From contig CAMPCW010000002.1 of assembly GCA_946647665.1 (NCBI GenBank), positions 1 to 50,721 on the forward strand: a DNA stretch of 50,721 nt. Direction: 5' to 3'. The stretch's first letter is position 1. Each line of letters opens with the position of its first letter. The position numbers and the translations under genes are program-made. The notes below the pieces were generated by a model, which saw nothing but the letters and a program-made list of their open reading frames with translations, did not search any database and had not been told where the DNA came from. This document shows, in pieces, positions 44,702 to 47,817 of the stretch. The DNA is from an uncultured Bacillales bacterium. GTDB lineage: Bacteria; Bacillota_I; Bacilli_A; RFN20; CAG-826.

Positions 44702-45571
44702 ATGAGAGTATTAGATGCTTGGCAAGGTTGGGTTGATTTCTGGCAAAAGTTTGCAGATTTTTTCTGGAAACCTGACGAAACTGGAATTAACTATCTTTCT
44801 CGTATTGGTGTAGCTATTGCTATTATCGTTTTCACTTGGCTTGTTCTTAAATTATTCAACCCATTACTTAAAAAACTATTTAAGGTCAAAAAAGGACCTG
44901 ATATTGATGTATCTGCAAAATTAATTATTCTTGGATTACTTAAATTTTTAATTTGGATCACTGTTGGTTTTATCGTTTGTAGTGTTTTAAAAATCAATTT
45001 ATCAGGAGTGGGCGGAATCATCGCTTCTGTTGGTGTCGCTCTTGGTTTAGCTTTACAAGATTTAGTCGGATCATTCTTCTCTGGCTTATTGATTATAAAT
45101 CAAAAAACTATTAGGACTGGTGACCACATTTTAGTTAAAAATGCCTTTGGGGAATGCGAAGGTGTTGTTAAAAGAGTTCATTTCTTCACCACAATTTTAA
45201 CTAGCTTCCAAGGTCAAAAAATTATCATCCCTAATAAAAATATGTCTAGTGCGGTTATTACTAACTACACTGTGAATGGAGAAAGAAGAATCGATTATGA
45301 TGTGGGAGTGAGCTATGATAGCGATCTTGAAGTTGTTAAAGAAGCTTTAGCCTCAGTAATTAAAGATGAACCGCTTGTGATTAATCCTGAAAAAACACAA
45401 GTATACGCTGAATCATTTGGACCATACTCTGTTAATATGAGACTAAGATGTTGGACTAAAGTTGATGATTATTGGACTTTATATAATCAACTAACCGAAA
45501 GAATCTATCTGGCGTTTAAGCAAAAAGGTGTTTATATTCCAAGTTCCACTGATAGAAATATTAAGAAATAG
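44702..45571 (+). CDS. MscS-family mechanosensitive channel
   Basis: TM helices followed by a beta-domain (GDHILVKNAFGECEGVVKRVHFFTTILTSFQGQKIIIPN). Promoter TTGCCT-16-TATAAT ends 9 nt before the ATG, and there is no SD. Confidence 0.85.
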   Translation: MRVLDAWQGWVDFWQKFADFFWKPDETGINYLSRIGVAIAIIVFTWLVLKLFNPLLKKLFKVKKGPDIDVSAKLIILGLLKFLIWITVGFIVCSVLKINLSGVGGIIASVGVALGLALQDLVGSFFSGLLIINQKTIRTGDHILVKNAFGECEGVVKRVHFFTTILTSFQGQKIIIPNKNMSSAVITNYTVNGERRIDYDVGVSYDSDLEVVKEALASVIKDEPLVINPEKTQVYAESFGPYSVNMRLRCWTKVDDYWTLYNQLTERIYLAFKQKGVYIPSSTDRNIKK

Positions 45572-45597
45572 CTGGCTATTGCCAGTTTTCTTTTTTT
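45572..45597 (+). terminator. Rho-independent terminator after the mscS-like gene
   Basis: CTGGC-TATT-GCCAG followed by TTTTCTTTTTTT. Confidence 0.75.
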
Positions 45598-45611
45598 AAA
45601 AAATTTTTAAC

Positions 45612-45659
45612 TTTTTTTCGCAAGAAATTAAAAAAATCCACTCTTTATATAATGTAGGG
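45612..45659 (+). promoter_or_regulatory. Conserved promoter module, copy B
   Basis: 46/48 identical to 18771-18818; -10 TATAAT at 45648-45653. Confidence 0.6.
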
Positions 45660-45805
45660 ACTTTTATAAGTTTCTATAATCCGAGACTCATCCAAGAGGC
45701 GCACTTTGGATGACTCTAGTGATTTTCTTTCTTCTTCAGTTTCTTTTTATCTAGATCATCTATGCGTTAGATGAGTCGAGGTAGGAGGGAGTTTTAATAT
45801 GAGAA

Positions 45806-45877
45806 ATGATCGTTGCTCTATTTGAGATCATCATAATCCTCTTGATTATAAAAAAAGACCCAAGCGACAAGCGTTAG
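45806..45877 (+). CDS. 23-aa hydrophobic peptide, type-I-toxin-like (copy 1, possibly frameshifted)
   Basis: MIVALFEIIIILLIIKKDPSDKR. The SD AGGAGGG at 45783-45789 is better placed for ATG 45799, which opens only MRNDRCSI*. Confidence 0.4.
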   Translation: MIVALFEIIIILLIIKKDPSDKR

Positions 45878-45890
45878 GGTCCAACCACAT
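45850..45890 (-). ncRNA. Predicted short antisense RNA overlapping the 3' end of peptide gene 1
   Basis: Minus-strand promoter TTGACT-17-TATCTT (plus coordinates 45923..45895), then hairpin GACCC-N15-GGGTC (45857-45881) followed by T7 on the minus strand. Confidence 0.35.
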
Positions 45891-45982
45891 CTAAAAGATA
45901 ACTGAATAACGCTTAAAAGTCAAGTTCTCTAATAGAGTCTTGATTAAATCCTTTGATAGGGCTATTGCCTATTAATAGGAGT

Positions 45983-46011
45983 TTGTCTCGTGGTCTCTTT
46001 GCACTTTTAAT
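45983..46011 (+). promoter_or_regulatory. Putative promoter of peptide gene 2, preceded by the 12-bp palindrome CCTATTAATAGG (45968-45979)
   Basis: TTGTCT-17-TTTAAT. Confidence 0.35.
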
Positions 46012-46053
46012 CATCTATCGTGATGTATCAAAAGGTAGAAAGGTGTGATTATT

Positions 46054-46143
46054 ATGTCTTCTAATAAGATGACAGTAATTATCTTAATTCTAGAAATAGT
46101 GATTTTGATACTTACAGTAATAATAAAAGCCCTAAGCAAGTAA
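46054..46143 (+). CDS. 29-aa hydrophobic peptide, type-I-toxin-like (copy 2)
   Basis: MSSNKMTVIILILEIVILILTVIIKALSK; SD AAAGGTG lies 8 nt upstream. Confidence 0.45.
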   Translation: MSSNKMTVIILILEIVILILTVIIKALSK

Positions 46144-46160
46144 CTAGGGCAACCAACTAA
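46121..46160 (-). ncRNA. Predicted short antisense RNA overlapping the 3' end of peptide gene 2
   Basis: Minus-strand promoter TTGACA-17-TACATT (plus coordinates 46193..46165), then hairpin GCCCTAG-N8-CTAGGGC with one mismatch (46129-46150) followed by TTTTATTATT on the minus strand. Confidence 0.35.
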
Positions 46161-46270
46161 TTATAATGTAGACCACGCGGTTACTAATGTCAACATTAAT
46201 AGTAGCTTTAGATTTATCTAGTTCGCCATTATGGGTAAAATAGGCTACTAATTGACGTAGGAAATCTTTC

Positions 46271-46299
46271 TTTACAAGACTATGAGCGATATGTATAAT
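46271..46299 (+). promoter_or_regulatory. Sigma-A-type promoter of rpsF-ssb-rpsR
   Basis: TTTACA (46271-46276), a 17-nt spacer, then TGTATAAT (extended -10; TATAAT at 46294-46299). Confidence 0.65.
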
Positions 46300-46371
46300 A
46301 CATATGCTAAAGTTAGCAAAACTCTGCTATTAATTAAATTCAATAGCCGTTAGACCAAGGAGGAAAAGAAA

Positions 46372-46662
46372 ATGCGCAAATACGAAATTATGTACATTTT
46401 AAGAGCCGACTTAGAAGAAGCACAACGTAAGGAAGTCATGGAAAAGCTTGCCAAAATTATCACTGACAATGGTGGTAAAGTTGAAGAAACAAGCGAAGCT
46501 ATGGGCTTACGTGAACTTGCTTATCCAATTAAGGAACAATCTAAGGGTTACTATGTTGTACTTAAGGTTTCTATGGATAACAAAGCGATTAATGAATTCA
46601 ATCGTTTAGTCCGTATCAACCCAAGTGTCCTACGTCATCTTATTGTTGTAGAACACAAATAA
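46372..46662 (+). CDS. rpsF: 30S ribosomal protein S6
   Basis: MRKYEIMYILR.. N-terminus; SD AAGGAGG. Confidence 0.97.
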   Translation: MRKYEIMYILRADLEEAQRKEVMEKLAKIITDNGGKVEETSEAMGLRELAYPIKEQSKGYYVVLKVSMDNKAINEFNRLVRINPSVLRHLIVVEHK

Positions 46663-47553: not shown

Positions 47554-47817
47554 ATGGTGATGAAAAGACATTTGCTTTTAAACAAGATAGCAACAATATC
47601 TTTAATTGTTTTGGCTGCTGCTGGATTTATTGCTGGCTTTGTGTTGGCTTTTTCTTTAAAATCCGTTTATCGTGAAGAGTATCAATACGTAGCTTACTTA
47701 TTATATATCCCAGCGGTTAGTGGAGGTTCGCTTGTTCTTTCTGTCCCAGGGATATTTATTCTTTTGTGGATAAGAAAAGATTATTACGAACTAAACGCTA
47801 AGGTTTCAAAACAATAA
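47554..47817 (+). CDS. Small two-TM membrane protein, unknown function
   Basis: SD TAGGAGA lies upstream; 87 aa; two hydrophobic helices. Confidence 0.5.
   Translation: MVMKRHLLLNKIATISLIVLAAAGFIAGFVLAFSLKSVYREEYQYVAYLLYIPAVSGGSLVLSVPGIFILLWIRKDYYELNAKVSKQ

Follow-up and report, generated by a model that had tools for sequence, protein, structure and literature searches.

Candidate tandem type I toxin-antitoxin-like cassettes between an mscS-like gene and rpsF in a lineage of uncultured Bacilli

Results

The DNA analysed here (the window) is a 50,721-nt metagenome scaffold from ENA with 33% GC, and the subject of this study is its spacer between an mscS-like gene (44702-45571) and rpsF, in which two short units with the anatomy of type I toxin-antitoxin (TA) loci lie one behind the other. 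The mscS-like gene ends in a bidirectional terminator at 45570-45587, and the ~800 nt from its stop codon (45571) to the rpsF ATG (46372) contain no open reading frame (ORF) longer than 42 aa on either strand, in agreement with a preliminary description of the sequence that had noticed the lack of ORFs of 60 aa or more. No gene was called at either of the two mini-ORFs, and an exact look-up of a 32-aa form of the second peptide returned no called gene. Genetic code 4 was considered and ruled out, as table 11 translates the large ORFs of the window without interruption. The genome nearest to the window is the metagenome-assembled genome (MAG) 'Bacillales/Caryophanales bacterium UBA3835' (L002) from uncultured Bacilli. 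Loci of further relatives were obtained by a genome scan for RpsF, which yielded 80 loci, and by a metagenome scan with the conserved rpsF promoter and leader pattern, which added 36; the labels of most of them name rumen or hindgut MAGs, and many read 'uncultured Erysipelotrichaceae' or 'Bacilli'. Comparison with these relatives makes it rather probable that the spacer harbours a lineage-specific, type I TA-like cassette in two tandem copies that have diverged.

The mini-ORF of unit 1 is located on the plus strand at 45806..45877, where the preliminary description had placed it, and encodes 23 hydrophobic aa (MIVALFEIIIILLIIKKDPSDKR). Its ATG is 16 nt away from the Shine-Dalgarno (SD) sequence, which serves an ATG at 45799 that opens only MRNDRCSI* in the window (45799..45825, plus strand), as had been pointed out before together with the suspicion that copy 1 is inactivated by a frameshift. 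This suspicion was substantiated because the SD-served ATG is in frame in the three close relatives L109, L103 and L093, in which it opens MKEIIAALFEFIIILLIIKKDPSDKR, MKEIILALFEFIIILLIIKKDPPSDKR and MEDIIVVFVEIIIILVIINKTPPNVRR, respectively. Judged from these relatives, the ancestral ORF began at the SD-served ATG with MKEII(A/L)ALFEF..., so that ATG 45799 is the ancestral start codon, now out of frame, and the ORF of the window is a truncated, frameshift-rescued version of a 26-27 aa toxin candidate. The repair suggested earlier, removal of one A, does not recreate the ancestral state, because the relatives read differently at the N-terminus and have an ATT codon in place of ATG 45806. An independent 1-nt deletion is present at the same place in unit 1 of L002; start-proximal frameshifts thus occur in two of five close relatives, and the cassette of L004 is devoid of a canonical start codon. 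Such recurrent damage near the start would fit a costly or dispensable gene, and it is no proof of toxicity.

Where the ORF of unit 1 is intact, the proportions of nonsynonymous and synonymous differences (pN/pS) are 0.03/0.19 within the pair L109/L103 and 0.25/0.51 between this pair and L093. A 3-nt in-frame insertion in the relatives adds a proline, and together with a matching change behind the stop codon it lengthens both arms of the hairpin at the end of the ORF; the unit 1 hairpins of L103 and L093 are kept with different, longer stems. L002, whose rpsF is 100% identical to that of the window, aligns over the whole spacer, with almost no change in the leader of unit 1, in unit 2 or in the two minus-strand promoters, whereas the ORF and the hairpin of unit 1 are heavily substituted. 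Despite these substitutions, the L002 peptide is still hydrophobic (IIVVFVEIILILVIINKTPPNVRR*), and its hairpin is rebuilt with different bases (CCCCACC../..GGTAGGGG).

The mini-ORF of unit 2 occupies 46054..46143 on the plus strand, again as described before, and encodes 29 hydrophobic aa (MSSNKMTVIILILEIVILILTVIIKALSK); the ORF listing allows its extension upstream to GTG 46045, which gives the 32-aa form. An SD sequence, AAGGTG, lies at 46040-46045 and ends 8 nt upstream of ATG 46054, the spacing that the preliminary description had reported. The peptide is kept as MSSNKMTVIILILEIVISILTIIIKAL(R/M) in L002, L093, L103 and L109, its intact form being MSSNKMTVIILILEIVISILTIIIKALR, and the SD of the same four relatives reads GAAGGAGGTG. 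With AAGGTG in the window vs GGAGGTG in these relatives, the SD of unit 2 is to be regarded as weakened. Given the frameshift in unit 1, the unfavourable position of its replacement ATG and the weakened SD of unit 2, both putative toxins of the window are probably attenuated. Between the units, a small hairpin (ATAGG-GCTATTG-CCTAT) is present at 45955-45971, the stem of which is kept in L002 with the loop GAATTA; a 10-mer of this hairpin, GGCTATTGCC, recurs in the loop of the mscS terminator at 45574-83.

In both units, a GC-rich hairpin coincides with the end of the ORF. The unit 1 hairpin (45857..45881) spans the last 6 codons and the stop codon and is preceded by a run of seven A (45850-45856); the unit 2 hairpin (46129..46150) spans the last 5 codons, stop included, plus 7 nt beyond, is preceded by AAAA (46125-46128) and continues on the minus strand with UUUUAUUAUU. 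No T-run follows either of them on the plus strand, and the earlier characterisation of these structures as intrinsic terminators for the minus strand only agrees with what we found. A terminator scan flagged 46150..46129 on the minus strand among 3 terminator-like sites (0.4 expected); it missed the unit 1 hairpin because the scan was limited to loops of 3-8 nt. The unit 2 hairpin, too, is retained in the relatives as a structure with changed stems. To the right of the hairpins, a promoter scan recovered both minus-strand promoters with 17-nt spacing that had been noticed before, TTGACT-17-TATCTT at 45895..45923 and TTGACA-17-TACATT at 46165..46193. The first is kept in the relatives, with the -35 box improved to TTGACA in L002 and L093. 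The second is unchanged in its hexamers and spacing in L002, L093, L103 and L109, apart from one C/T change within the spacer, and it scores 10.5, for which the background P in an 80-nt window is 0.011.

These promoters and hairpins would delimit two minus-strand RNAs, a predicted antisense RNA 1 of ~39 nt (45850..45888) that consists of a 5'-GUGGUUG tail, the hairpin and U7, and a predicted antisense RNA 2 of ~35-38 nt (46121..46158) with a 5'-AGUUGGUU tail, the hairpin and a U-rich tail. On the opposing message, both would extend over the final 7-9 codons, the stop and 7-11 nt of the 3' tail. When the predicted antisense RNAs of window and relatives (32-50 nt) were folded, 14 of 14 consisted of a short G/U-rich tail, a hairpin and a U-run, with z scores from -0.6 to -5.0; their stems did not align in MAFFT. 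Duplex energies between the antisense RNAs and their own leaders or translation-initiation regions (TIR) were no better than those of shuffled antisense RNAs (z -1.85 to +1.4), which leaves the overlap in cis, comprising last codons, stop and C/A-rich tail, as the sole interaction site. YUNR U-turn motifs are present in the loops of 9 of the 14 antisense RNAs vs 5.2 expected, a weak excess.

The window alone proves nothing, as its promoters are at chance level, with 5 promoter-like sites in the region vs 4.1 expected in shuffles, and its hairpins are moderately beyond shuffles. Folded as minus-strand RNAs with their U-tails, the hairpins of units 1 and 2 reach -9.9 kcal/mol (z -1.8) and -10.6 kcal/mol (z -1.6), z scores that are modest by themselves. 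Since the promoter matches alone do not exceed chance, it is their conservation in relatives that lends the minus-strand promoters significance. Together with the frameshift in unit 1 and the weak SD of unit 2, these figures would agree with a mere coincidence of T-rich ORFs, promoter-like hexamers and hairpins in AT-rich intergenic DNA, or with dead, functionless remnants. Given the comparative data, such an origin is disfavoured and appears very improbable to us: the same composite recurs in 12 distinct cassettes at one site and nowhere else in 1.25 Mb, the ORFs are open far beyond expectation, and intact versions exist in L093, L103 and L109.

In total, 19 cassettes were catalogued, of which 12 were counted as distinct, and all of them lie just upstream of rpsF. 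Besides the window and L002, they are found in L003, L004, L006, L007, L010, L015, L085/L108, L093, L094, L100, L103, L109 and L117. In relatives with 67-91% identical RpsF, the DNA aligns only at the rpsF promoter and leader, while the order of the cassette parts is still the same: an element homologous to the candidate unit 1 promoter P1, a leader of ~100-150 nt with pyrimidine tracts, an SD, the ORF, an A-run with GC hairpin, a C/A-rich tail and a minus-strand promoter. The SD is of the GGAGG type and 6-9 nt upstream of the start in most cassettes; the ORFs have 19-29 codons, are strongly hydrophobic (at least 2.7 in a 14-residue hydropathy window) and have a K/R-rich end; the hairpin is positioned over the stop codon or directly after it; and the tails read CAACC, CAAACC, CAACATC and similar. 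Peptide-plus-hairpin units recur in the homologous intergenic regions with ORFs that are open, hydrophobic and mostly SD-served, as illustrated by MDFIIILVLLCCLVSIIKGPTRKG (L006), MNNELILLLLLLFAVLSKIKDPKD (L010), ..IIEAILFLVLVLTLVLAIKKDPRN (L004), MNDASFILFLLCVLVYIIKANRKG (L100), MELVILFLTVLVSLIVTIKK (L117), MQDLLVLLLLMIVLVYLTKR (L085/L108) and MEYLIVLIMLLLLLIQLDKRR (L094). The joint chance of the frame staying open in 12 cassettes is ~1e-9, a rough figure as the 12 are not all independent. The minus-strand promoter is located +17 to +29 nt from the stop where the hairpin overlaps the stop, and it is farther away and weaker in several of the other cassettes. It scores 9.5-11.5 in 14 of the 19 cassettes, compared with probabilities of 0.12 for scores of at least 9.5 and 0.011 for at least 10.5 in random 80-nt windows. 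Some cassettes have no canonical start or good promoter, and the sequences differ. A generic promoter-plus-hairpin detector was too noisy and was replaced by a composite detector that combines SD and start, a hydrophobic ORF of 17-45 aa, an A-run hairpin at the stop without a T-run after it, and a minus-strand promoter. This detector gave 15 matches in 1.25 Mb (both strands counted), all immediately upstream of rpsF and none elsewhere, with thresholds that were chosen post hoc, after the cassettes had been seen. Within the 50-kb window, blastn and tblastn found no further cassette copies.

The length of the mscS-rpsF spacer is quantised among the relatives. It measures ~280 nt with zero cassettes in L009, L011, L095, L096 and L107, 375 nt with remnants only in L008, 503-528 nt with one cassette in L006, L007 and L117, and 806-823 nt with two cassettes in the window, L002, L003, L093, L103 and L109. 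This series indicates that the cassettes are discrete, dispensable units, with gain, duplication, decay and loss all taking place at a single site. At 2230-2350 of L008, the P1 element and sequences similar to the flank of the L007 minus-strand promoter are kept while ORF and hairpin are lost, which looks like the remnant of a cassette deletion. A second style of cassette, in which the hairpin follows the stop codon, was observed in L003 (1870-2000 and about 2100-2250), L007, L015, L085/L108 and L094; it has a conserved block, ACAATGA(C/T)ATTATAGCA, which corresponds to a minus-strand TATAAT. L003 seems to hold two cassettes of this style, the second with an ORF of 11-13 codons and possibly decayed.

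On the plus strand, the candidate P1 for the unit 1 message is a TATAAT -10 box at 45648..45653 without a good -35 box, which was not called by the promoter scan. The homologous element, AAAATC(G)CC..TATA(T/A)A..GTAGGG/GTGAGG, marks the left edge of every cassette and is also present in relatives without cassettes. A P1-like element (AAAATCGCC..TATATA..GTGAGG/GTAGGG) with an inverted repeat around the -10 box was noticed at 45625-45660 of the window and in L005, L007, L008, L009, L011 and L012, and it is found upstream of rpsF also where no cassette is present; in four relatives, it contains an additional palindrome, CTCAAGGAATTAC..GTAATTCCG. It could be an operator or an ancestral upstream promoter of the rpsF region.

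The 5' untranslated region (UTR) of unit 1, ~140 nt at 45661..45798, contains a 5' stem-loop (45684-45717), two pyrimidine tracts with anti-SD character (45724-45737 and 45740-45752), an apical hairpin (45756-45774) and the SD region at 45779-45791 (AGGTAGGAGGGAG), and it is ~97% identical to that of L002 while the ORF has diverged. The mutually exclusive pairings proposed before reappeared in our analyses, as an inverted-repeat search returned the repeats 45684-95/45706-17 and 45685-95/45767-77, and the TCATCTA/TAGATGA hairpin was seen in minimum free energy (MFE) folds. In these folds, TTTCTTTTTATCT pairs with AGGTAGGAGGGAG in the window, L109 and L103, and the helix is imperfect in L093; UUUCUUUUUAUCU and AGGUAGGAGGGAG are predicted to form a local hairpin, and the second pyrimidine tract to pair with the start region. 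The same design of anti-SD, apical hairpin and SD is predicted for L006, L010, L100 and L117 as well as for unit 2, in which a translation-control hairpin at 45994..46045 on the plus strand would comprise the pyrimidine tract TCTCTTTGCACTTTT, an apical CATC..GATG hairpin and the SD region AAAAGGTAGAAAGGTG. This hairpin of unit 2 appears in the MFE fold, and the mean probability of the SD being unpaired is 0.08 vs 0.32 in controls. Among the 13 cassettes with a hairpin overlapping the stop, the SD is predicted to be paired in 10 (P unpaired 0.00-0.09), always with an upstream pyrimidine tract, yet SD sequestration was not significantly better than in shuffled-leader controls, which were slightly less paired; it remains a prediction because the accessibility test was not clearly beyond these controls. 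RNAalifold returned no consensus structure for the divergent leaders aligned with MAFFT.

The terminator scan found no plus-strand terminator after either ORF or before rpsF, and we identified no separate plus-strand promoter for unit 2. Plus-strand transcripts may thus run on toward rpsF, and both ORFs may share a single P1 transcript. This raises the question whether the plus strand simply serves rpsF-ssb-rpsR as a long leader without coding function or as an upstream regulatory region, read from P1, in which convergent promoter-terminator pairs tune read-through by transcriptional interference and the ORFs are not translated. Such a role would match the fixed position relative to rpsF in all examples, as well as the P1-like element and the TTCGCCATT-loop hairpin, which are kept upstream of the rpsF promoter even without cassettes. 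However, a strongly conserved promoter and leader that belong to rpsF itself are located downstream of the cassettes, and many relatives have no cassettes at all. Moreover, the ORFs stay open, hydrophobic and mostly SD-served across very different sequences, unit 1 shows a pN/pS below 1 and an in-frame indel, and in the window the frameshift was followed by the recovery of an in-frame ATG. We therefore consider a purely non-coding function improbable.

Several further elements were noticed close to rpsF. A hairpin at 46213-46244 has an invariant loop, (G)TT(C/T)GCCATT(T/A), and occurs also in L004-L012, L087, L100, L103 and L117, 57-76 nt upstream of the rpsF -10 box irrespective of the presence of TA cassettes. 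Its stems vary from species to species, with few exceptions, but stay complementary (GTAG/CTAC, GATGAG/CTCATC, AGCAAT/ATTGCT, AGAGTTG/CAACTCT, TTTATCTA/TAGATAAA and others); in the window, the stem is held together only by G.U pairs on the plus strand, and a T-run follows it in L007, L008 and L087. Rfam gave no match for this hairpin, which might serve as a binding site for a protein, at the RNA or DNA level, or as the plus-strand terminator of upstream transcripts. The rpsF promoter (TTTACA-17-TATAAT) and 5' leader at 46271-46371 have 68-83% DNA identity across 15 related genomes (L003-L016). The leader contains two hairpins (GCTAAAG..TTAGC and CTGCT(A/G)TTA..TAA(T/C)AGCC) upstream of the SD and probably is an S6:S18 autoregulatory leader, for which no Rfam family was returned at gathering score. 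Downstream of rpsR, an 87-aa ORF at 47554-47817 appears hydrophobic by eye, possibly with two membrane-spanning segments, and has no Pfam match on record.

Discussion

The cassettes upstream of rpsF are real, conserved and lineage-specific, and from their sequences they are best read as a new compact form of type I TA systems. The comparative data support the architecture that the preliminary description had proposed for the two units, namely tandem loci with an antisense promoter and a terminator for the minus strand only. Tandem duplication, small size, hydrophobicity, a polar or basic C-terminus and SD/anti-SD pairing are hallmarks of type I TA systems, and a 3'-overlapping antisense RNA is a hallmark specifically in Gram-positive bacteria (PMC2887945, PMC8594479, PMC8309996). 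The class is characterised by hydrophobic peptides of ~20-60 aa with one transmembrane (TM) segment and a polar or charged C-terminus, and the cassette peptides have 19-29 aa and a K/R-rich end. At sequence level, the minus-strand promoter and terminator delimit a predicted RNA of 35-40 nt across the 3' end of the ORF, and the tandem copies are set apart in one spacer, two of them in 800 nt of the window and 0, 1 or 2 in the relatives.

From this anatomy, a mechanism can be proposed. The toxin mRNA would start near 45660, after the TATAAT at 45648-53, with a structured leader (~100-140 nt in each cassette) in which a pyrimidine tract pairs with the SD, and with this predicted pairing translation would be low by default. 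The encoded peptide, of 26-29 aa, would have a short polar N-terminus, a single hydrophobic helix of TM length and a basic tail, and it would presumably be a membrane-acting toxin. A near-consensus minus-strand promoter 15-40 nt past the stop codon would drive an RNA of ~35-40 nt that serves as antitoxin and comprises no more than a G/U-rich 5' tail of 6-9 nt followed by its own terminator hairpin and U-tract. With the toxin mRNA, this RNA would be able to pair without mismatch over the final ~7-9 codons, the stop codon and the C/A-rich 3' tail. Pairing might start at the unstructured tails, with the C/A tail of the mRNA and the G/U tail of the antisense RNA acting as toehold, or alternatively by a loop-loop contact of the two mirror-image hairpins. 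The duplex may then destabilise the mRNA, either through cleavage by RNase III around the stop codon or through loss of a protective 3' hairpin, as with txpA/RatA and with bsrG/SR4, and cleavage within the last codons would also yield a non-stop message. The arrangement implies dual coding, as the C-terminal ..K-K-(D/G/T)-P.. of the toxin candidates is encoded by the U-tract and stem of the predicted antitoxin.

Among characterised systems, the cassettes are most readily compared with TxpA/RatA, BsrG/SR4, BsrE/SR5 and YonT/SR6, in which the antisense RNA likewise lies on the 3' side and overlaps the 3' part of the ORF. They share with the txpA/RatA group a short peptide that has a single TM segment and ends in a cationic or polar C-terminus, and an antitoxin promoter that is closer to consensus than the toxin promoter; the toxin-mRNA SD is sequestered in that group, and a comparable pairing is predicted for the cassettes (PMC7430163, PMC8309996, PMC8594479). 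For txpA/RatA, bsrG/SR4 and bsrE/SR5, cleavage of the duplex by RNase III takes place at the stop codon or beside it, the characterised B. subtilis antitoxins have 100-222 nt, and the mapped overlaps are ~120 for RatA and 114 bp for SR5 (PMC7430163). In contrast to this group, the cassettes have the predicted antitoxin terminator within the last codons of the toxin candidate, show no peptide similarity, reside at the chromosomal mscS-rpsF site and not in a prophage, and have no detected plus-strand terminator.

Similarities to the Enterococcus faecalis par locus (fst/RNA II) comprise convergent transcription, predicted for the cassettes, of a toxin mRNA and a small antitoxin RNA with one common hairpin region, and, for Fst/Ldr peptides in general, a size of ~25-33 aa, with charges at the N-terminus (MK(D/E)..) and in the tail on either side of a hydrophobic core. 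A limitation of translation by a 5' structure, again predicted for the cassettes, and tandem chromosomal copies in some species are further parallels (PMC2887945, PMC8309996). However, APxxxG, the conserved motif of the Fst TM helix (PMC8309996), occurs in no cassette peptide, and no peptide matches Fst in Pfam or NCBIfam. Fst and RNAII interact at the translation-initiation region outside the overlap (PMC8594479), whereas the predicted cassette antisense RNA overlaps the ORF without additional complementarity to the TIR, and the common hairpin is a terminator for one strand only. The earlier comparison with txpA/ratA, bsrG/SR4 and fst/RNAII thus holds for the 3'-overlap orientation of the TxpA/BsrG group, and it fails for the Fst motif, the Fst-type interaction and the antitoxin size of B. 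subtilis. E. coli Ibs/Sib and ShoB/OhsC have similarly small hydrophobic toxins of 19 and 26 aa, and the tandem repetition of Ibs/Sib in one intergenic region is a trait that was used to discover new families (PMC2887945, PMC8309996). Unlike the cassettes, these systems are Gram-negative, Sib spans the whole ibs ORF and OhsC is divergent and non-overlapping (PMC8594479), and sequence similarity is absent in both cases.

Family searches placed the cassettes in no named group. Rfam gave no match at gathering score in the whole window, and a permissive scan of 45400-46500 (E<=10) returned only chance-level matches. A tblastn search with the unit 1 peptide against plasmids was negative, and in the literature we found no type I TA system described next to rpsF or in Erysipelotrichia-like lineages. 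The preliminary description had likewise assigned the peptides to no named family, and this agrees with the lack of matches in Pfam, NCBIfam and PADLOC.

The lack of resemblance to known toxins raises the possibility that the cassettes encode small but genuine membrane proteins whose role is physiological and not toxic, for example as modulators of transporters, channels or the envelope, which are tuned by a cis-antisense RNA, so that 'toxin-antitoxin' would be the wrong label. The conservation of ORFs, SDs and antisense elements is compatible with this possibility, as is the constant chromosomal, non-prophage context between the mscS-type channel gene and the rpsF operon. A housekeeping function would, however, hardly be expected to be patchy among close relatives, with 0, 1 or 2 copies, and the fast turnover of the peptides, their tandem copies and the frequent frameshifts or start losses are common traits of type I toxins that small housekeeping proteins rarely show. 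A leader design predicted to keep translation low also speaks against it. We consider a non-toxic function unlikely, although it is an explanation to be taken seriously.

Several points weigh against reading the cassettes as type I TA systems, in addition to the modest hairpin statistics, the post hoc thresholds of the composite detector, the SD pairing close to that of shuffled leaders, and the missing plus-strand terminator and unit 2 promoter with the possible run-on of transcripts toward rpsF. Scans of all peptides against Pfam and NCBIfam (E<=10) and against PADLOC returned only noise, and phmmer gave 0 matches for the 32-aa form of the unit 2 peptide among 1.84 billion representatives. 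All cassettes derive from one lineage and one genomic site. We tested whether the hairpins are more stable on the minus than on the plus strand, with a negative result. The predicted antitoxin and its overlap, at ~35-40 nt, are far shorter than the 100-222 nt and ~114-120 bp of the txpA/RatA group, and this length was derived from the -10 box only, by placing the transcription start site 7 nt after it. Antisense transcription, translation and toxicity of the peptides as well as the silencing mechanism are what we infer from the anatomy of the cassettes.

A more far-reaching proposal goes beyond the reading as type I TA-like cassettes, and we advance it only tentatively, as doubtful in its entirety. 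In this proposal, the cassettes would form an undescribed type I TA family restricted to one lineage of uncultured Bacilli of the herbivore gut, with a minimal antitoxin of ~35-40 nt reduced to toehold and terminator, the terminator coding for the K-K-D-P tail of the toxin. As no plus-strand terminator is present, the toxin mRNA would belong to a P1 transcript that reads through into rpsF-ssb-rpsR. Silencing of the toxin, possibly via non-stop mRNA, would then be one outcome of duplex cleavage at the stop codon, and an effect on upstream transcription of the ribosomal-protein and ssb operon the other.

Type I TA systems are known from few phyla (PMC12390103), and they are badly under-annotated because toxins and RNAs both escape gene callers. 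If functional, the cassettes would extend the class to a lineage of uncultured herbivore-gut Bacilli and set a new lower bound for the size of an antitoxin. Dual coding, too, would be clearly exemplified, with the C-terminal residues of a peptide dictated by the very RNA terminator that controls it. The series of zero, one or two cassettes, with intact and frameshifted alleles at one chromosomal site, constitutes a comparative system for the gain, decay and loss of such modules. Loci of this type are expected to be common and under-annotated, and the minimal antitoxin, the dual coding and the graded cassette number may be useful features of the loci described here.

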